A stretch of DNA of 64,000 nt from positions 61,925 to 125,924 of the forward strand of contig JAGOQQ010000002.1 in NCBI GenBank assembly GCA_017991395.1. The letters run 5' to 3'. The notes below the pieces were generated by a model, which saw nothing but the letters and a program-made list of their open reading frames with translations, was not told the DNA's origin and made no database searches. How positions within the stretch are numbered: position 1 is the stretch's first letter; each line of letters begins with the position of its first letter. Below are positions 22,924-34,388 of this stretch, one piece after another. The DNA is from Minisyncoccota bacterium (GTDB taxonomy: Bacteria; Patescibacteriota; Minisyncoccia; Phycocordibacterales; UBA9973). The position numbers were made by a program, and so were the translations under genes.

Positions 22924-22997
22924 CCGTCCTTAGCTCAGTTGGTTAGAGCACAGAGCTTATACCTCTGGGGTCCATGGTTCGAATCCATGAGGACGGA
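22924..22997 (+). tRNA. tRNA-Ile with anticodon UAU (reads AUA)
   Basis: Manual cloverleaf: acceptor CCGTCCT/AGGACGG, D GCTC/GAGC, anticodon stem CAGAG/CTCTG with loop CTTATAC (anticodon TAT), T-arm CATGG-TTCGAAT-CCATG, discriminator A. No encoded CCA. Confidence 0.75.
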
Positions 22998-23046
22998 CAA
23001 ACATAAGAAGCGACACCGTCAGGCGTCGCTTTTTATGTTTGTCCGT
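22984..23046 (+). repeat. ~62 bp direct repeat (tRNA-Ile 3' end plus terminator hairpin); second copy at 23200..23262
   Basis: atccatgaggacggacaaacataagaagcgacaccgtcaggcgtcgctttttatgtttgtccg appears twice about 216 bp apart. Confidence 0.8.
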
Positions 23047-27083: not shown

Positions 27084-27113
27084 TCTCTCACACAAAAATC
27101 GCCCACATGTGGG
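27084..27113. terminator. bidirectional intrinsic terminator (aaaaatcgcccacatgtgggcgattttt)
   Basis: Perfect palindrome with flanking A and T runs, downstream of the minus-strand response regulator. Confidence 0.7.
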
Positions 27114-27131
27114 CGATTTTTGTGTAATACT

Positions 27132-27500
27132 TTAGTCAGTCAGCTCTCTTACTTTTGATACGATTTCATCAAGCGTAAAGTTTGATTTGATCATAAAATG
27201 ATTCGCACCAAGTTCTTTGGCTTGAGCGATATCTTTCTCATCACTTAGGTTTGAGAAAATAATAACAGGTGTTTCTGTAAGCTTTAGGTTCTCACGAATT
27301 TTTTTAAGAATGCCAAATCCGTCTGTTCCTGGCAAAAGCAGATCAAGCAATATAATATCTGGAGTATGCGATTCCAAGATAGTATTGAGCTCTTCAACGC
27401 TACTTGCAGGAAGTACTTCAAAGCCTTCTTTTGTAAGCTTTGTTGATGCGAGGTTTTTTAGAAATGTATCATCTTCTACGATTAGGACTTTTTTGCTCAT
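27132..27500 (-). CDS. stand-alone response regulator receiver (CheY-like)
   Basis: IVEDD...D54-equivalent (DIILLDLLLPGTDG)...K (IIFSNL...AKELGANHFMIK). Confidence 0.8.
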   Translation of the reverse strand: MSKKVLIVEDDTFLKNLASTKLTKEGFEVLPASSVEELNTILESHTPDIILLDLLLPGTDGFGILKKIRENLKLTETPVIIFSNLSDEKDIAQAKELGANHFMIKSNFTLDEIVSKVRELTD

Positions 27501-27535
27501 AATGGAAATTATTATCTTATATACTTACTATTTTA

Positions 27536-28288
27536 TCACAATTTTGATTCAAAGGGCAGGGTGATTGAAAATGTCGTACCTTGACCCTCAGTGCTTTCAA
27601 ACACCATCGTTCCTCCGTGTTTTTCAATAATATTCTTTGAGGTGTACAATCCCAATCCTGTGCCAATTTCTTCTTTTTCTTTTGCATTTTTTGAGCGGAA
27701 GAATTTTTCAAATATTTTGGCTTTGTCCTCGTCTTTTATTCCGATGCCCGTATCTTTGACCGTGATTGTCAGTGTGTCGAATTGTTCATGCAAAGAGATG
27801 AGTACTCGGTCACCATCGTTGCTGTACTTGATTGCGTTTTCAATAAGATTTTGAATCACAAACCGTATCTTACCTTGATCTACGTGGATATCTTTCGGCG
27901 TGTAATCAGGCTTCAGGAAAAGCAATTCAATTCCTCTTTTGTATGATTCTCCGACAAAGTCAAACACGATGCTGTCGATAAGTGTAATGATGTTTGTGGG
28001 TTGCGGGTTGTATGAAAGACTCGCTTCTTCTGTATGATTGATAGAGAGCATTTCATTTACGAGTCCTATCATTCTGTCGTTTCCTTCAAATGCTTTTTTG
28101 AGAAGTTTTGATTGATCCGGTGTCAGCACGCCCAAGTCGCCATCGAGACACATTTTGAGTAGCCATTTTGTAGCTCCAAGTGAGGTGCGAAGTTCGTGAG
28201 CGCTAATTGAAATAACATCAGACTTAAAAGAATTAAGCTTTTTGAGTTTCTCGTTTTCTTCTTGTAGTTTTTTTATTTCTTCGTCCAT
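27536..28288 (-). CDS. cytoplasmic sensor histidine kinase (HisKA plus HATPase_c)
   Basis: H-box SAHELRTSL, N-box QNLIENAIKYS, G-boxes DTGIGI and GTGLGL. No TM segments. Confidence 0.8.
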   Translation of the reverse strand: MDEEIKKLQEENEKLKKLNSFKSDVISISAHELRTSLGATKWLLKMCLDGDLGVLTPDQSKLLKKAFEGNDRMIGLVNEMLSINHTEEASLSYNPQPTNIITLIDSIVFDFVGESYKRGIELLFLKPDYTPKDIHVDQGKIRFVIQNLIENAIKYSNDGDRVLISLHEQFDTLTITVKDTGIGIKDEDKAKIFEKFFRSKNAKEKEEIGTGLGLYTSKNIIEKHGGTMVFESTEGQGTTFSITLPFESKL

Positions 28289-28290
28289 TG

Positions 28291-28602
28291 TTATTCTTTT
28301 TTCATATCAAGATTTTCGAGCTTGAGTGCCTTGAATCCAAAATAAATTACCGCTGCTACAATTATAAAATCAATAATACTTGAAATAAATGCTCCGTATT
28401 TGATTGACGTCGCACCAATTTCAATCGCCTTGTCCGCGAGATTTACTTTTCCAAGAAGTGCGCCGATGAGGGGATTGATAATGTTGTCGACAAGTGACGT
28501 CACAGTCTTTGAGACAGCTCCGCCAAGAATAAATCCAATCGCGAGTCCAATGACACCTTGTTTTCTAATAAATTCTACAAAACCTGTAAGTTGTTGATTC
28601 AT
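28291..28602 (-). CDS. mscL: large-conductance mechanosensitive channel MscL
   Basis: FVEFIRKQGVIGLAIGFILGGAVSKTVTSLVDNIINPLIG is the MscL N-terminal/TM1 signature. 103 aa. Confidence 0.8.
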   Translation of the reverse strand: MNQQLTGFVEFIRKQGVIGLAIGFILGGAVSKTVTSLVDNIINPLIGALLGKVNLADKAIEIGATSIKYGAFISSIIDFIIVAAVIYFGFKALKLENLDMKKE

Positions 28603-28677
28603 ACTACCTATAGTATATCCTTTCTTTTAAAATACAAAAATACACCATCAGTGTAAATAGTGTATTTTTTGGGAATG

Positions 28678-28899
28678 CTATTTGATTGGATTTTCTCCGC
28701 GAATTATGCGAACGAGGAAAAGTATAACTGCGATAACGAGAAGGATGTGAATAAATCCACCGAGGACATGAAATCCCAAAAATCCGAGTAACCATAGTAT
28801 CAAAAGTATGGTAGCGATAGTTGTAATCATAAAATGAGTTAAGTGTGAAATTGTAAGTAAGTTGACATCGACCAATTGTCTCTGTATTAAGTATACCAC
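28678..28899 (-). CDS. small lmo0937-family-like membrane protein (likely shorter, starting at an internal Met)
   Basis: ILLILWLLGFLGFHVLGGFIHILLVIAVILFLVRIIRG resembles the small GG-containing lmo0937-type membrane peptides. Confidence 0.45.
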   Translation of the reverse strand: MVYLIQRQLVDVNLLTISHLTHFMITTIATILLILWLLGFLGFHVLGGFIHILLVIAVILFLVRIIRGENPIK

Positions 28900-28943
28900 T
28901 TAATGTGGTATTTTTTGAGGTTGTAACTTATTGACGTATATGT

Positions 28944-29552
28944 TCACTTGTGAAATCTGAGGCGTTTGATGGCTTGGTGAATAAGCACGGAGATAATTGA
29001 GACTATGATTAATAGTAGAATTAATGATAAGGCGCGATCCCCAAAATACGACGTGAAAAAATTTCCTGCATACACTCCAACAACACCCCAAATCATAGAT
29101 CCAATAAAGCTGTATATAATGTATCGTTTTGTGTGGACACCGCGGACAGCTGCAAATAATGACGGCGTTGAACGTACCAAAGGTATGAGTTTGCCAAAGA
29201 TTGCGATGAGCGCCAAGTGTCTATCAAAAAGTTCCCACGATTTTTGATGTTTTTCATTTTCCACAATTGCTTTAATCCACTTGAGGTGTTTGAATCGTTT
29301 TGCTATTAAAAATCCTGTCATATCGCCAAGGAAGCTTGCGAGTCCCACTATTGTGCACGCTGTAAGTGGAGCAATAATACCTTTTGCAGATAACCCTCCT
29401 GCAAATATGGCAATCGTACCACCGGGCAGCACAGAGCCAATCACTGGCAACCCTTCCGCAAATGAAAAAAATCCAAGTACGAGCATTTGCCATTCTGTCG
29501 GAATTGTTTCAAGTAGTGAGATTATTGAATTGGAAATAGATGCCATGCACAA
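28944..29552 (-). CDS. DedA/VTT-domain family membrane protein
   Basis: FAEGLPVIGSVLPGGTIAIFAGGLSAKG and overall DedA topology. Confidence 0.75.
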   Translation of the reverse strand: MCMASISNSIISLLETIPTEWQMLVLGFFSFAEGLPVIGSVLPGGTIAIFAGGLSAKGIIAPLTACTIVGLASFLGDMTGFLIAKRFKHLKWIKAIVENEKHQKSWELFDRHLALIAIFGKLIPLVRSTPSLFAAVRGVHTKRYIIYSFIGSMIWGVVGVYAGNFFTSYFGDRALSLILLLIIVSIISVLIHQAIKRLRFHK

Positions 29553-29653
29553 ATCTTACCATGTAGACTTGTTGTACAAGAAGAGGTATGTGTCGTTTTA
29601 ATGCGGTGTCTATTGTGCAAAATTCGAACATTTTTTGACGAAAATCCTAAAAA

Positions 29654-29872
29654 CTAATTTTCTGGATAGTGTTCTAAATAAAACTCACGAAGTATTTCAC
29701 TCTTACTTTCATAATTCTTATCTTGTTCTGAAACTGCAATAACTCCCTCCAAATATTTTTTTGCTTTTGGCTCATCGTATTCCTTCATAGACAGAAAAAT
29801 TTCTACAGCTTCTTTAATGGGTAAGTATTTATTCTCAATTGGTGTTGGGCTTGATTCAAAGTTTGTATTCAT
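29654..29872 (-). CDS. hypothetical small protein
   Basis: 72-aa ORF with no motif. Confidence 0.3.
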   Translation of the reverse strand: MNTNFESSPTPIENKYLPIKEAVEIFLSMKEYDEPKAKKYLEGVIAVSEQDKNYESKSEILREFYLEHYPEN

Positions 29873-30090
29873 AAGTATGATTATATCATATAAAAATGAT
29901 CACTTTTTTCTTTGCGGAACCGGCGAGATTCGAAACTTACAGTTTCAGTACACCTTTTCGATTTGTTTGGAGAAATCTCCTCACAAACAACGAAAAGCTC
30001 TTCGAATCTCTCTCGGAAGTACCGCAGGGTACTTCCTCGTCTCCGCGAACAAAAATGGTCCGGAATGATTCCGGACTCATTTTTTGTAAT

Positions 30091-30293
30091 CGCGGTGTGT
30101 ATTGAACGAAGTTCGAATGTATTTTGAATTGAATCCTGACGACCAATGATGCGCGCCTCGGACACGCTCGCGGACTCGCGTGTGCAAAAACCAAAAAATT
30201 TCCTTGCATTTTTCTCGCGTCTCCTCCCCCCACCCCTCCGCCGCGAAGCGGAAAAAGAAATGGAAAGGAAATTTTTGGTTTTGCTTCGCCGTT
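30091..30293. repeat. inverted repeat arm A (~203 bp) with an internal long palindrome (aaaccaaaaaatttccttgcatttttc...gaaaaagaaatggaaaggaaatttttggttt around a GC-rich core)
   Basis: Reverse complement of 32270..32474. ORF-track translations on opposite strands are identical over about 65 aa (AKQNQKFPFHFFFRFAAEGWGEETREKCKEIFWFLHTRVRERVRGAHHWSSGFNSKYIRTSFNTHR). Confidence 0.85.
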
Positions 30294-30573
30294 TCAGTCT
30301 CCGAAAAGAGCAATCTTATTTTAACATTTTTGTTTGCTCTTTTCTCCACCCTCACGGCGACCGAGGCGCTTCCTCTCCGCGTTTGGTGGTGACTCTAAAC
30401 TCCGTGGCTTCGACGGAGAAAGTGCCAACTCATCAAAGTGGAGCCTCGCCATACAAAATTCTTTAAGGAATGGCGAGGCGCAAATCCTATTATGTGTTTG
30501 CCCCACCCTCCCGTGCGCACACATCATCCCCGCCGTTTTGGGAGAATATTATAAAACGGCGGGGATGGCTCCC

Positions 30574-31317
30574 TTATTTAAAATTCATAGTCCACTTATC
30601 TTTACCTTCCCAACCATCAAACATTTTTCCATGTCCCATTTCTCGGCTCAGTTTTTCAATACCAGAAAGTAAATCTTGTTGAGTTTTAAGGTCTGCTGTT
30701 TCTAAAATATGTTTTATTTTTTCTACAAATTCTTTGGGCGACCAAGGCAAATTTTCCAAAGGATACTTTTCTAGTTCTTTTTGAACATAACCGAGAAATG
30801 GTCTATGCCTGCCATTCATGGCAAATACGAGTGTAAGTAAATCAAGCATGGAGTTTACTGCCTCCAAATGAGCACCAAACATATTATTATTGCGAATACA
30901 TTTTACAGAGCGATATACACCATTTACATACCCGTCAATCCACCAATCAATAAATTTATTCAATTTATCTGGCGGTATTTGACCTTTTTCCTTAACCAGT
31001 TTTTCCAATTCTCCGTCTGTCCTGTCTACAAGAATTTTGACATGAGCGTAATTATATCTGTCCCATGATTCTGGGCTTTCCCAGCCAGCAAATGTTTTGA
31101 AATCAGAGAAAGAACGCACTGACAAATCCACATTATCTAAAGTCATCTTTTCGTATTTTTCGTGGATTGTGTTAGCGGCTTCGTCTTTAATAATCATTAC
31201 AGCATCATAATCGGAATGTTCATTTTCAAAACCCTTGCCACGCGAACCAACAAGAATGAAGCCGACAACGTCCTCGTTTTCTTGTGCCTCTTTAAGTATT
31301 TTTTCGTAGTCGTTCAT
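30574..31317 (-). CDS. ANT(6)/AadK-like minimal nucleotidyltransferase (putative aminoglycoside adenylyltransferase-family protein)
   Basis: N-terminal NTase motif VGFILVGSRGKGFENEHSDYDAVMII (GS...DxD) and a helical C-terminal domain. The layout resembles the ANT(6) N-terminal motif (GSRANINIPKDEFQDYDITYFV in ANT(6)-Ia) as recalled from memory. Confidence 0.5.
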   Translation of the reverse strand: MNDYEKILKEAQENEDVVGFILVGSRGKGFENEHSDYDAVMIIKDEAANTIHEKYEKMTLDNVDLSVRSFSDFKTFAGWESPESWDRYNYAHVKILVDRTDGELEKLVKEKGQIPPDKLNKFIDWWIDGYVNGVYRSVKCIRNNNMFGAHLEAVNSMLDLLTLVFAMNGRHRPFLGYVQKELEKYPLENLPWSPKEFVEKIKHILETADLKTQQDLLSGIEKLSREMGHGKMFDGWEGKDKWTMNFK

Positions 31318-31321
31318 AGAT

Positions 31322-31981
31322 TTATTTTAACATTTTATTAGCTAATAATAATTTTTGAATAAGTTCCGAAATATTTTTATGGACAGGCCAAATTTTTTGT
31401 ATTTCGGCACGCATATCTTGATGTTGAAGGTATCCCTCATCTCGTTTTCCATTCATTAGATCGGAAAACTCAAGATTCAAAAGTTCCGTCAAAGATTCTT
31501 TGATGTCGTTATACGCCAATTTTGAAAGTCCCTCGTCTAGCAACTTTTTACCGAAAGTGTGCCATGTGTAGAAATGTAAAAGTTCGTGCATTATCGTGTT
31601 GTTGGAAAATTCCGAGCCGATTCTGACGAAAAAATAGTTTTGCTCGATGTTGTAGGTACAACGCTCGTTGTGGGTCAAATAAACAGTAATAATCGGGGCT
31701 GGGTAAGAAATGCCGAATAACTTTTCCACTCGCTCAATGAAAATGGGTTCGGCAATTTTCCATCTTGCCTCTACAGCAACAATTTCCTTGTTAGCGTCGA
31801 AACCACTTATTTTGTCTTGTTCCCCAATAAACGCCTTGACCTTTTCCGTTTCAAAATTTTCGCCGTATTTTTCGGAAAACGAAATTTGAAACTTTGTTGG
31901 TTTCTTACTATTCGTCGCGTTCGTTCCCTTGATAAAGTTTTCAACGTCCTTATCTATATTGTATGCAAAATGTAATTTCAT
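31322..31981 (-). CDS. HExxH-motif protein (putative ImmA/IrrE-like zinc metallopeptidase), function unknown
   Basis: IMHELLHFYTWH contains HExxH. It is co-oriented and adjacent to an XRE-family HTH gene, as in ImmR/ImmA modules. Confidence 0.35.
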   Translation of the reverse strand: MKLHFAYNIDKDVENFIKGTNATNSKKPTKFQISFSEKYGENFETEKVKAFIGEQDKISGFDANKEIVAVEARWKIAEPIFIERVEKLFGISYPAPIITVYLTHNERCTYNIEQNYFFVRIGSEFSNNTIMHELLHFYTWHTFGKKLLDEGLSKLAYNDIKESLTELLNLEFSDLMNGKRDEGYLQHQDMRAEIQKIWPVHKNISELIQKLLLANKMLK

Positions 31982-31985
31982 AAAT

Positions 31986-32198
31986 TTATTTCAAAAGTTC
32001 ATCACTTGCAACTCCTAACGCTTGAGCGATTTTCTCAATGGTTGCGAGTGTTGGATTTCCTTTTCCACTCTCAATATTGCTCATTTGAGCGCGATCAAAA
32101 CCGAGAGCACGACAAATGTCGCCTTGCGACATTTTCTTTCGCTCTCGTATGCGCTTTATGTTTCTTCCCAACTTAATTGACGATGTTTTCATATCCAC
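31986..32198 (-). CDS. XRE-family helix-turn-helix transcriptional regulator (70 aa)
   Basis: LGRNIKRIRERKKMSQGDICRALGFDRAQMSNIESGKGNPTLATIEKIAQALG is a canonical HTH_XRE. Confidence 0.75.
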   Translation of the reverse strand: MDMKTSSIKLGRNIKRIRERKKMSQGDICRALGFDRAQMSNIESGKGNPTLATIEKIAQALGVASDELLK

Positions 32199-32269
32199 AG
32201 TTTATATTCTAGCAGTTTGTTGTGTCTTATATCAATAATGTGATATATTACAATAGATGAGAATGTTGA

Positions 32270-32474
32270 TAACGGCGAAGCAAAACCAAAAATTTCCTTT
32301 CCATTTCTTTTTCCGCTTCGCGGCGGAGGGGTGGGGGGAGGAGACGCGAGAAAAATGCAAGGAAATTTTTTGGTTTTTGCACACGCGAGTCCGCGAGCGT
32401 GTCCGAGGCGCGCATCATTGGTCGTCAGGATTCAATTCAAAATACATTCGAACTTCGTTCAATACACACCGCCA
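32270..32474. repeat. inverted repeat arm B (reverse complement of 30091..30293), directly fused to 32471..32587
   Basis: Sequence identity, plus shared ORF-track peptides on opposite strands. Confidence 0.85.
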
Positions 32475-32587
32475 GAAAACGAAATCGGATTTTAGAGCCG
32501 AAATGGGGTCGCGCCGAAGGCGCGACACTAGGGCATTCCCCCCGCCGAATCCAGAATCCAAAAGGGTTTTCCACGCTCCGCGTGGCT
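32471..32587. repeat. second inverted repeat: reverse complement of 33994..34110, which abuts the tRNA-Ser 3' end
   Basis: Peptide RKRNRILEPKWGRAEGATLGHSPRRIQNPKGFSTLRVA is encoded on opposite strands at both loci. Confidence 0.85.
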
Positions 32588-32609
32588 CGTCGTTTGCCAA
32601 TACAATTCT

Positions 32610-34160
32610 ATGAATAATCAAACCAAAAAGTTTTTCATATATACTCGCAAGTCTACGGACGACAAAGACAGACAAGTCCGCAGTATTTCCGACCAGTTGA
32701 GTGAGTTAAAAGAGTTAGCGCTGAAAGAGCAACTGGAAGTGATGGATGTCTTTGTCGAAAAGCAGACCGCCAAAATACCAGGTCGTCCCGTGTTTAATGA
32801 AATGATGACGAGAATGGAAGCGGGCGAAGCGTCTGGTATTTTGGCGTGGCATCCCGATAGACTTGCTCGCAACTCGGTAGATGGAGGAAAAATCATCTAC
32901 CTCGTTGATACTGGAGTAATTTCAGAAATGAAATTCCCAACTTTTTGGTTTGATCCGACACCGCAAGGCAAATTCATGCTCTCAATCGCTTTTTCGCAAT
33001 CCAAGTATTATGTGGACAATTTGAGTGAAAATATCAAGCGCGGACATAGAAACAAAGTGAAGGAAGGGATATGGCCTCAAATGTCTCCGATTGGATATGT
33101 GAACGAGAAAGGAAAAGGTATTGTGCCACATCCTGAACTTTCGATTTTAGTAAAAAAGACATTTGAGGCATATGCAACTGGAAACTTCACTTTGCGGGAA
33201 GTCCGCGACAAATTTAACGCGCTTGGATTGAAAAGAAAAAGCGGTAGAGAGCTTGCGGTGTCGAATTATCAAAAACTTCTCAAAAATCCTATTTACACTG
33301 GTCTCATGAGGTATAACGGAGAGATTTTTGAGGGAAAGCACGAACCGATTATTTCAAAGAAACTTTTTGATTCTGTTCAAGAAGTGATGAGTCGAAAATC
33401 TAAACCTCATTCCAAAGGTTTGAAACCATATATTTATCGGGGATTTTTCCGTTGCGGAGAATGTGGATGTTTTATAACTACCGAGCAACAAAAAGGTCAT
33501 AACTATTTGCGATGTACCAAACGGAAAAATCCTTGTGAGCAAAAATATGTTCGTGAGGAGCTCATCACTTCTCAAATTCAAGAGGAAATCAAAAAAGTTT
33601 CTTTGCCTCTCGATTGGACAGAATGGATGATTGCCGAAAATGCAAAGGATCGGCAATCGGAAGTCCAATCAAGTGAGATTTTTTCTCAAAAAATACAAAG
33701 TAAAATTTCTCTTTTGGATGCAAAAATGGAGAAGCTGATGTCTGCGTATTTGGAAAGTGCATTTTCGCTTGAAGAATATCGTGATGCTAAAAGTGCCATG
33801 GTTAACTCAAAACAGCTTCTCAAAGAGAAATTATCAGCTTTTGAGAAAAAATCTCATAATCGGTTCGAACTTACCGAAAAGTTTTTGAAATACAATATGG
33901 AATTGGCAAACGACCGAACAAATGAGGAAAATACTCATTTGTTCAAAAAAGTCGGTTCGAACTTTCAAATTAAGGATCGAACCGTACTTTTTGAGCCACG
34001 CGGAGCGTGGAAAACCCTTTTGGATTCTGGATTCGGCGGGGGGAATGCCCTAGTGTCGCGCCTTCGGCGCGACCCCATTTCGGCTCTAAAATCCGATTTC
34101 GTTTTCTGGCGGAGACGGAGAGATTCGAACTCTCGAGGCCATTACAGCCTGCCTCCTTAG
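32610..34160 (+). CDS. large serine recombinase (resolvase/invertase N-terminal catalytic domain, recombinase domain, zinc ribbon, coiled-coil). The annotated 3' end runs through the repeat and tRNA-Ser, so the true stop may be earlier or the C-terminus repeat-derived
   Basis: FFIYTRKSTDDKDRQVRSISDQ (catalytic Ser in YTRKS), GILAWHPDRLARN, recombinase-domain residues, and a Cys cluster RCGECGCF...CTKRKNPC. Confidence 0.8.
   Translation: MNNQTKKFFIYTRKSTDDKDRQVRSISDQLSELKELALKEQLEVMDVFVEKQTAKIPGRPVFNEMMTRMEAGEASGILAWHPDRLARNSVDGGKIIYLVDTGVISEMKFPTFWFDPTPQGKFMLSIAFSQSKYYVDNLSENIKRGHRNKVKEGIWPQMSPIGYVNEKGKGIVPHPELSILVKKTFEAYATGNFTLREVRDKFNALGLKRKSGRELAVSNYQKLLKNPIYTGLMRYNGEIFEGKHEPIISKKLFDSVQEVMSRKSKPHSKGLKPYIYRGFFRCGECGCFITTEQQKGHNYLRCTKRKNPCEQKYVREELITSQIQEEIKKVSLPLDWTEWMIAENAKDRQSEVQSSEIFSQKIQSKISLLDAKMEKLMSAYLESAFSLEEYRDAKSAMVNSKQLLKEKLSAFEKKSHNRFELTEKFLKYNMELANDRTNEENTHLFKKVGSNFQIKDRTVLFEPRGAWKTLLDSGFGGGNALVSRLRRDPISALKSDFVFWRRRRDSNSRGHYSLPP
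33994..34110. repeat. inverted repeat arm C (partner of 32471..32587), ending at the tRNA-Ser CCA end
   Basis: See 32471..32587. Confidence 0.85.
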
Positions 34161-34195
34161 CAAGGAGGTACGTTAGACCACTCCGACACGTCTCC
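34107..34195 (-). tRNA. tRNA-Ser (anticodon GCU), class II with a long variable arm and encoded CCA
   Basis: Reverse complement GGAGACGTGTCGGAGTGGTCTAACGTACCTCCTTGCTAAGGAGGCAGGCTGTAATGGCCTCGAGAGTTCGAATCTCTCCGTCTCCGCCA. Anticodon stem CCTCC/GGAGG with loop TTGCTAA, T-arm AGAGA-TTCGAAT-CTCT, discriminator G. Confidence 0.85.
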
Positions 34196-34299: not shown

Positions 34300-34386
34300 G
34301 GAGGATTGGATGAGTGGTTTAAATCAACGGTTTACTAAACCGTCGTTCCTTAATTGGAACCGTGAGTTCGAATCTCACATCCTCCG
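34300..34386 (+). tRNA. class-II (Ser-like, G73) tRNA with anticodon loop UUACUAA, i.e. an apparent ACU anticodon; possibly aberrant or a pseudo-tRNA
   Basis: Acceptor GGAGGAT/ATCCTCC (7 bp). 3-bp D stem GAT/ATC. Anticodon stem ACGGT/ACCGT. Variable-arm hairpin GTTCC-ttaatt-GGAAC. T-arm GTGAG-TTCGAAT-CTCAC. Discriminator G. Confidence 0.55.
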
Positions 34387-34388
34387 CA

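Follow-up and report, generated by a model that had tools for sequence, protein, structure and literature searches.

A three-gene cargo operon on a serine-recombinase element with twin inverted repeats in a tRNA-Ser gene in a Patescibacteria genome

Introduction

The described mobile elements closest to the locus studied here are the tycheposons of Prochlorococcus, small elements that occupy the 3′ ends of tRNA genes in streamlined genomes, combine a recombinase module with variable adaptive or defence cargo, and form tandem arrays at the same target; a large serine recombinase is present in only 27 of 937 tycheposon-type elements (bioRxiv 10.1101/2020.12.28.424599). Comparable large-serine-recombinase systems are SCCmec, with its Ccr recombinases, and the serine integrases of phages. 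Here we analyse a 64,000-nucleotide stretch of the genome of a Minisyncoccota bacterium (assembly GCA_017991395.1, contig JAGOQQ010000002.1), a member of the Patescibacteria or candidate phyla radiation (CPR). The stretch, hereafter called the window, contains an integrative element that shares the listed features with tycheposons. Unlike tycheposons, the family to which this element belongs has two adjacent inverted-repeat modules, with arms of 120 and approximately 200 bp, and an internal inverted copy of its own deduced attachment site, attP. We found no description of such a twin-repeat serine-recombinase layout in our literature searches, in which the tycheposon was the nearest concept.

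The cargo of the element consists of three co-oriented genes encoding an XRE-family regulator with a helix-turn-helix (HTH) domain, a zinc-hydrolase-like protein with an HExxH motif (the HExxH protein), and a nucleotidyltransferase (NTase). The systems closest to the NTase are the aminoglycoside nucleotidyltransferases (ANTs) ANT(4′)-Ia, ANT(4′)-IIb, and ANT(6), together with LinB/Lnu(B). The closest to the HExxH protein are thermolysin and the catalytic domain of the M1 gluzincin peptidases ERAP1, LTA4H, and PepN. The adjacency of XRE-family and HExxH genes on integrative elements is also known from the ImmR/ImmA pair of ICEBs1 and from Xre-COG2856 modules; unlike in ImmR/ImmA, the XRE and HExxH genes described here are not co-inherited outside the element lineage of the window. 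The trio is neither a conserved three-part system nor a known resistance or defence system. The two enzymes represent new families of known superfamilies and are carried by a serine-recombinase integrative element of an unusual variety, whose twin inverted repeats are a more unusual feature of the locus than the enzymes themselves. On balance, we favour the view that the trio is a cargo operon of a site-specific element and provides two small-molecule-type accessory enzymes with a role in detoxification or antibiotic resistance.

Boundaries and integration site of the element

The boundaries of the element (Table 1) are fixed because an empty site is seen in two near-identical genomes, L143 (GCA_020050275.1) and L146, in which the position equivalent to 34109 of the window is joined straight to that equivalent to 30095. 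The flanks of the empty site are 96.6–100% identical to the window, and the two contigs were found by looking up a neighbouring protein of 72 amino acids. The crossover site is the 3′ terminal CCGC of tRNA-Ser(GCT), and the bacterial attachment site, attB, comprises the 3′ end of this tRNA gene and its native hairpin terminator. The recombinase possesses the three domains of large serine recombinases and matches the integrase family PHROG 95 with an E-value of 3e-79. Together with the empty-site allele and the short core, the domains identify the locus as a large-serine-recombinase element, of which the recombination itself is predicted. The initial annotation of this DNA, made from the sequence alone, had called the three genes a cargo, which is literally right because they sit within a precisely bounded insertion.

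The last approximately 55 codons of the recombinase gene (33993–34160) run through the right arm of inverted repeat B and then along the antisense strand of tRNA-Ser. Because this arm is coding, the 5′ leader of the recombinase gene, formed by the left arm, is the perfect reverse complement of the gene's own 3′ coding end. Furthermore, the extreme C-terminus of the recombinase depends on the target tRNA, since the antisense strand of the tRNA encodes it.

Table 1 Coordinates of the element and its features in the window
Feature	Position	Strand	Description
Whole integrative element	30096..34112		4,017 bp, with the 4-bp core counted once
Inverted repeat A, distal arm, 202 nt	30092..30293		Outer end: attR and GCGG core at 30092-30095
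Conserved non-coding cargo tail, 280 nt	30294..30573		Element backbone
G+C-rich hairpin, 15 bp, predicted by folding	30525..30567	-	Directly 3′ of the NTase stop codon
NTase, 247 aa	30574..31317	-	N-terminal pol-beta NTase domain and C-terminal helical HEPN/KNTase_C-like bundle
HExxH zinc-hydrolase-like protein, 219 aa	31322..31981	-	Gluzincin fold, uncharacterised family
XRE-family HTH regulator	31986..32198	-	First gene of the cargo operon, element backbone
Putative sigma-70-like promoter of the cargo operon	32206..32235	-	TTGATA, 18 nt, TG-n-TAGAAT
Inverted repeat A, proximal arm	32271..32472		CCGC core at 32469-32472
Inverted repeat B, left arm, 120 nt	32469..32588		Shortly before the recombinase start codon
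Large serine recombinase (integrase), 516 aa	32610..34160	+	Resolvase 2e-18, Recombinase 2e-15, Zn_ribbon_recom 1e-7
Inverted repeat B, right arm	33993..34112		attL and GCGG core at 34109-34112
tRNA-Ser(GCT), integration target	34107..34195	-	Detected by ARAGORN and Rfam

Twin inverted repeats and the internal attP copy

The element is organized into two adjacent modules, each bounded by an inverted repeat. The arms of repeat A enclose the XRE, HExxH, and NTase genes, those of repeat B enclose the recombinase gene, and the two arms of each pair are 100% complementary. All three repeat junctions have the CCGC core in common, and the junction of the empty site falls in the distal arm of repeat A. 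The attP deduced from these borders is the outer end of repeat A joined to the outer end of repeat B. Unexpectedly, the integrated element contains an intact inverted copy of this attP between the XRE and recombinase genes, formed by the proximal arm of repeat A and the left arm of repeat B. This internal-attP layout is shared with L002 and 21 complete sibling elements.

The distal arm of repeat A continues into the non-coding tail of the cargo segment, which is 70–92% identical, in blocks, in siblings with different cargo. The arm and tail form a G+C-richer segment of 482 nt (30092–30573) that folds into successive hairpins (fold z-scores −5.6 and −7.4). Several compensatory changes are found among seven siblings. 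Rfam gave no known RNA in the inverted repeats or the tail. The segment could be a structured RNA, a set of protein-binding sites, or a replication or recombination region.

The sibling elements are the best 80 of 460 recombinase relatives from one metagenome scan, with amino-acid identities to the window recombinase of 81–92%. Repeat B flanks the recombinase gene in nearly all 80, and repeat A flanks a variable segment in many of them; the twin-module layout was noted in dozens of siblings, including L002, L066, L072, L080, and L136. The repeat arms are almost always 98–100% identical within an element and 70–100% identical between elements, which implies concerted evolution. We rejected the possibility that the inverted repeats are an assembly artefact, as the layout is shared by dozens of independently assembled, diverged sequences. 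Among the 72 sibling loci in which the B arms could be scored, 52 adjoin the 3′ end of a tRNA-Ser with any anticodon, one adjoins a tRNA-Trp, and eight run off the end of the contig. A recombinase segment acting as a frequently flipping switch was also rejected, as all scored siblings next to a tRNA have it at the recombinase 3′ arm, the arm covered by the tRNA search.

In independent metagenome contigs, the cargo segment points either way with respect to the recombinase gene and the flanks. L137 is an exact flipped isomer of L136, with identities of 100% and 99.96% over the two joins, and in L064, L071, and L086 the tail, instead of the XRE gene, adjoins the recombinase gene. These flips are either real inversions across the arms of repeat A or the result of an assembler mis-resolving the repeat of approximately 200 nt. 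Possible roles of the twin repeats are inversion, cassette exchange, and regulation.

Two or three sibling recombinase genes are located on one contig in L081, L108, L115, L116, L122, and L123, and in L116, L122, and L123 they occupy successive repeat-bounded modules, which suggests tandem arrays formed by repeated insertion at a regenerated target. A distant relative in L011 (JAGWIT010000012.1, 2711–8511), with a recombinase 37% identical to that of the window, is located at tRNA-Arg(CCT). Its single pair of inverted repeats of approximately 160 nt encloses the recombinase gene and a resistance-like cargo with the gene order XRE, APH/AAA, NTase, kinase, VOC, and GrpB.

The XRE regulator belongs to the element backbone

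The complete cargo segments that could be recovered from 21 siblings are 1–6 kb long. Sibling cargo includes type II and type III restriction-modification (R-M) systems, Mrr, a ThsB-like TIR protein of the Thoeris type, an SLFN-type helicase, metal-efflux genes for an HMA protein with a P-type ATPase, antibiotic-kinase-like proteins of the APH family, alpha/beta hydrolases, and NUDIX proteins. The NTase and the HExxH protein of the window are carried by none of the 80 siblings. The XRE protein matches HTH_3 (PF01381) over its full length (E-value 4e-14), which places it among XRE/Cro-C1 HTH regulators, and its best match in PADLOC is the R-M "Control_protein" (1.6e-15). XRE relatives with identities of 33–94% are encoded in 37 of the 80 sibling contigs, ahead of unrelated cargo; in at least 12 of the 21 complete segments, the gene nearest the recombinase belongs to a single XRE cluster. 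Even XRE proteins 82–94% identical to that of the window head quite different cargo. Because the XRE gene leads unrelated cargo in siblings, it is a part of the element backbone, together with the promoter, the tail, and both repeats, and not a dedicated partner of the HExxH gene.

The initial annotation described the three genes as co-oriented and tightly spaced, and the open reading frames are indeed all on the minus strand, with a gap of 4 bp both between the XRE and HExxH genes and between the HExxH and NTase genes. In sibling cargo segments the gene after XRE, whichever it is, follows at 1–4 bp; tight spacing is thus a general trait of the cargo slot and no sign of functional coupling of the trio. 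The XRE gene can start at a GTG at 32198, giving 70 residues, or at an ATG at 32192, giving 68; the ATG is likelier, and sibling contigs call the 68-residue gene. The candidate promoter is a strong one: it agrees with the consensus at 10 of 12 positions, has an extended −10 element, is the best site in the region, and stops 7 nt ahead of the GTG, from which we infer its function. The hairpin behind the NTase gene is kept in sibling elements, with one compensatory change, and is a probable terminator or insulator of the operon.

Homologue searches returned 139 sequences for the NTase and 231 for the HExxH protein, nearly all full length, and the homologues with a named source are mostly from Patescibacteria. 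The catalytic residues are invariant across both sets. The large number of homologues and the invariance of their catalytic residues demonstrate that the open reading frames are real genes and not chance ones. The trio as a whole was also found in three independent metagenome contigs, with nucleotide identities of 87–88%.

The HExxH protein is a single-domain gluzincin

The HELLH motif noticed in the initial annotation is located at residues 132–136 of the HExxH protein, and the metalloprotease fold expected from it was found. His132, Glu133, His136, and Glu162 are invariant, distant family members included, and constitute the HExxH…E ligand set of gluzincins. The HExxH helix and the downstream glutamate are placed on a thermolysin-like scaffold characteristic of the gluzincin (clan MA) fold, and the closest structural matches are the catalytic domains of M1 aminopeptidases. 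The spacing from histidine to glutamate is 25 residues, compared with 18–20 in M1 peptidases and thermolysin. In contrast to M1 peptidases, the protein is a single domain of 219 residues, without the M1 N- or C-terminal domains or the GxMEN motif. Other invariant residues of the family include Trp74, Asn105, Arg107, Tyr110, Tyr184, and Arg191. The protein is thus a cytoplasmic single-domain gluzincin of an uncharacterised family, which has 689 representatives at 50% identity; among 150 listed family proteins, nearly all full-length members are single-domain and about 205–240 residues long.

Sequence profiles place the protein in no described family. No Pfam model covers it, and the SprT/WLM affiliation considered in the initial annotation comes down to a SprT-like match around the motif that falls short of the profile threshold. 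It gave no match in PADLOC, no relatives were found in a scan of viral contigs or in a plasmid search, and neither it nor the NTase obtained a family from PHROGs or NCBIfam or a significant hit in sequence and profile searches of the PDB.

The HExxH gene stands alone in the complete CPR genome L006 and between tuf and fusA in L135, and elsewhere it lies beside unrelated genes. It is also a cargo of other sibling elements (L133 and L136–138), where a LigT/2H phosphoesterase gene comes next with an overlap of 4 nt. In P0143, the HExxH domain is fused to GrpB, which we take from its Pfam clan to be an NTase-fold family, and the fusion gene lies directly behind an XRE leader. The C-terminal domain of another HExxH fusion, P0203, matched no Pfam family or PDB entry; a GS…DxD-like string seen in it by eye was not counted as evidence. 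One element with the HExxH gene in its cargo has a class A beta-lactamase gene beside it. In L142 (4358–4996), a second, distantly related protein of 212 residues with the motif HELVH, a possible tandem paralogue, is encoded directly upstream of a family member.

The nucleotidyltransferase resembles antibiotic-modifying enzymes in structure

The NTase carries the pol-beta signature GS-x10-DxD (Gly24, Ser25 … Asp36, Tyr37, Asp38); its two halves were read correctly in the initial annotation, with the spacing given as nine residues instead of ten. Residues 5–70 match the Pfam family NTP_transf_2 with an E-value of 4e-6. The structure is closest to those of the kanamycin nucleotidyltransferase ANT(4′) and LinB, and the catalytic base of ANT(4′) could not be mapped onto the NTase. 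The isoelectric point of the NTase is 5.4, and aminoglycoside nucleotidyltransferases are likewise acidic proteins.

Relatives of the NTase were surveyed in a species-level genome collection, which yielded 44 genomes or loci from CPR bacteria, Heimdall and other Asgard archaea, Chloroflexota, Acidobacteriota, Deinococcota, and actinomycetes. Compared with ANT enzymes, the uncharacterised family spans CPR, Asgard archaea, Chloroflexota, Acidobacteriota, and actinomycetes, and has no known resistance phenotype. The relatives have no fixed partner gene across the 44 loci, and an HExxH gene is within 6 kb of an NTase relative in none of the 44 genomes. Neighbours are repeatedly members of detoxification-type superfamilies and include proteins with a metallo-beta-lactamase fold (four loci), a VOC/bleomycin-resistance fold (four), APH (two), GNAT (two), and MatE (one). 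One relative stands alone between rpoBC and trmD, and a gene for an NTase-GrpB fusion adjoins a GNAT gene. Relatives on Streptomyces plasmids are annotated as "hypothetical protein" and their contexts are uninformative.

Function of the cargo enzymes

The NTase and the HExxH protein are accessory enzymes that evolved separately. Members of both families are common in Patescibacteria, and either enzyme can be found alone in a housekeeping context. In the mechanism that we propose, the large serine recombinase would drive the 4,017-bp element into the 3′ end of tRNA-Ser(GCT) of its Patescibacteria host, and XRE would autoregulate the cargo operon and probably the divergent recombinase gene as well. 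The NTase would act as an ANT/Lnu-type O-nucleotidyltransferase, transferring a nucleoside monophosphate from a nucleoside triphosphate-Mg complex onto a hydroxyl of a small-molecule acceptor, and the zincin would act as a hydrolase of amide or peptide-like bonds. The two enzymes may work independently or loosely together, and the host may benefit from their activities. The drug-modifying enzyme proposed in the initial annotation is retained here in part: the structure and the neighbours of the NTase are consistent with a resistance-type function, whereas the protein matches no antibiotic-nucleotidyltransferase sequence family above threshold.

Several observations weigh against a detoxification or resistance role. 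The NTase scores 12.9 bits against the streptomycin adenylyltransferase model of ANT(6), PF04439, for which the cut-off is 22, so the ANT(6)-like layout seen in the initial annotation is not borne out. It has no match to the KNTase_C profile, and in an hhalign comparison of the NTase profile with the ANT(4′)-Ia sequence only the GS…DxD nucleotide-binding motif aligns. Conservation of the family is strong between Asgard archaea and CPR bacteria, with identities of 38–50% and about 20 invariant residues, and is as compatible with a conserved cellular substrate as with a drug. A housekeeping role is a possible explanation for the solo copies near ribosomal and RNA-polymerase genes. The enrichment of resistance-type neighbours is modest, with few of the 44 loci involved and no statistical control. 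Finally, the HExxH-GrpB fusions and the adjacency of the 2H phosphoesterase gene hint at a closer link between HExxH and NTase functions than that of independent enzymes.

Such a link is the basis of a more far-reaching and rather doubtful interpretation, in which the HExxH zincin and an NTase-fold partner, either KNTase-like or a fused GrpB, would form a new two-enzyme resistance or defence cassette. The cassette would be spread by undescribed tRNA-Ser-specific elements, the twin repeats and internal attP of which would allow cargo inversion or exchange. Slightly less plausible is that the two proteins constitute a true two-enzyme anti-phage or abortive-infection system, or a nucleotide-signal or nucleotidylation system, in which the NTase synthesizes a nucleotide product or links it to a target on which the zincin, elsewhere replaced by the 2H phosphoesterase, also acts. 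Defence genes are frequent in sibling cargo (R-M, Mrr, ThsB-TIR, and PDC-S41/SLFN), the HExxH-GrpB fusion follows the same XRE leader, an NTase-GrpB fusion exists, and the overlapping HExxH and LigT/2H phosphoesterase genes recur in two other cargo sets. Nevertheless, the PADLOC matches of the NTase are limited to its motif and have E-values of 1e-4 or weaker (0.025 for Cyclase, 1.4e-4 for PDC-S09), and the HExxH protein has none. The separation of the two genes at all 44 NTase loci, their solo copies in housekeeping contexts, the lack of HExxH relatives in the viral-contig scan, and the failure of the C-terminal domain of P0203, the third fusion, to match any family also speak against a two-enzyme system.

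The small antiphage or toxin NTase module suggested in the initial annotation did not emerge in any known form. The NTase is assigned neither to the CD-NTases of CBASS nor to another defence NTase in PADLOC, no effector-like neighbour of a CBASS-type NTase is present at the window locus, and the type VII toxin-antitoxin pair MntA/HepT was not recognized either. A toxin role of either enzyme is disfavoured because of the solo copies in core loci.

It is improbable that the cargo repairs or modifies RNA to counter ribotoxins, with an RlaP- or CCA-type NTase and a YbeY-like metallo-RNase or a protease of an RNA-linked target. The NTase has a weak match to RlaP (E-value 0.024), the HExxH gene is paired with 2′-5′ RNA ligase/2H phosphoesterase genes, and solo copies lie beside translation and transcription genes. 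Against this, every family match is below threshold, and the best structural matches are small-molecule nucleotidyltransferases and peptidases. YbeY has the ligand motif H-x3-H-x5-H, unlike the HExxH…E set, which is that of gluzincin peptidases.

We regard it as equally improbable that both enzymes are conserved housekeeping proteins of CPR bacteria, of which the element merely acquired extra copies. Solo orthologues with identities of 48–79% in rpoBC/trmD, tuf/fusA, and tRNA-synthetase operon neighbourhoods, together with the high sequence conservation, are in line with this explanation. It conflicts with the patchy distribution, given that the species-level collection contains only 44 loci with an NTase relative, and with the lack of a conserved neighbour. 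In addition, the genes occur on elements and Streptomyces plasmids, beside recombinases and transposase fragments, and the window copy is missing from near-identical strains.

An ImmR/ImmA-type repressor and anti-repressor pair controlling a drug-modifying NTase, as envisaged in the initial annotation, is largely refuted and very improbable, for although the XRE gene is directly upstream of the HExxH gene within a mobile element and one of 41 distant HExxH family members has a sub-threshold Peptidase_M78 match (E-value 0.0044), the HExxH protein of the window matches ImmA/IrrE (Peptidase_M78, COG2856) neither by profile nor by fold, the same XRE leader heads R-M, APH, hydrolase, and other genes, the HExxH family is often without an XRE neighbour, and co-inheritance of the pair is lacking.

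Sequence surrounding the integration site

The native sequence downstream of tRNA-Ser (29900–30091) contains a bidirectional hairpin terminator at 30057–30077 and two tRNA-like 3′-end fragments, at approximately 29907–29934 and 29990–30045, and the empty-site genome L143 has these as well. A contig from the sequencing run SRR11088367 is 100% identical to positions 27096–30121 of the window. The fragments are probably scars of older insertions. We considered the fragment at 29907–29934 as an attachment-site remnant of the 4,017-bp element and rejected it: the empty-site genome has the fragment too, and it therefore predates the insertion. A further tRNA-Ser was detected by ARAGORN beside the target tRNA (34300–34387); its anticodon, ACT, is unusual and was also called for the target tRNA of the siblings L084, L094, and L128. 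The window also contains a tRNA-Ile with the anticodon TAT (UAU), uncommon in bacteria, at 22924–22998.

Implications

Few mobile elements have been described from Patescibacteria, which are reduced episymbionts, and very little is known of their accessory, resistance-type, and defence-type genes. The element described here represents a very abundant family that moves small interchangeable gene sets into tRNA-Ser genes. The recombinase and the attB that it uses, which is short, well defined, and part of a universal tRNA, could be of interest to genome engineers. Substrates for the zincin and NTase families would annotate thousands of genes. If it is true that the NTase inactivates an antibiotic, an environmental reservoir would contain a new class of ANT.

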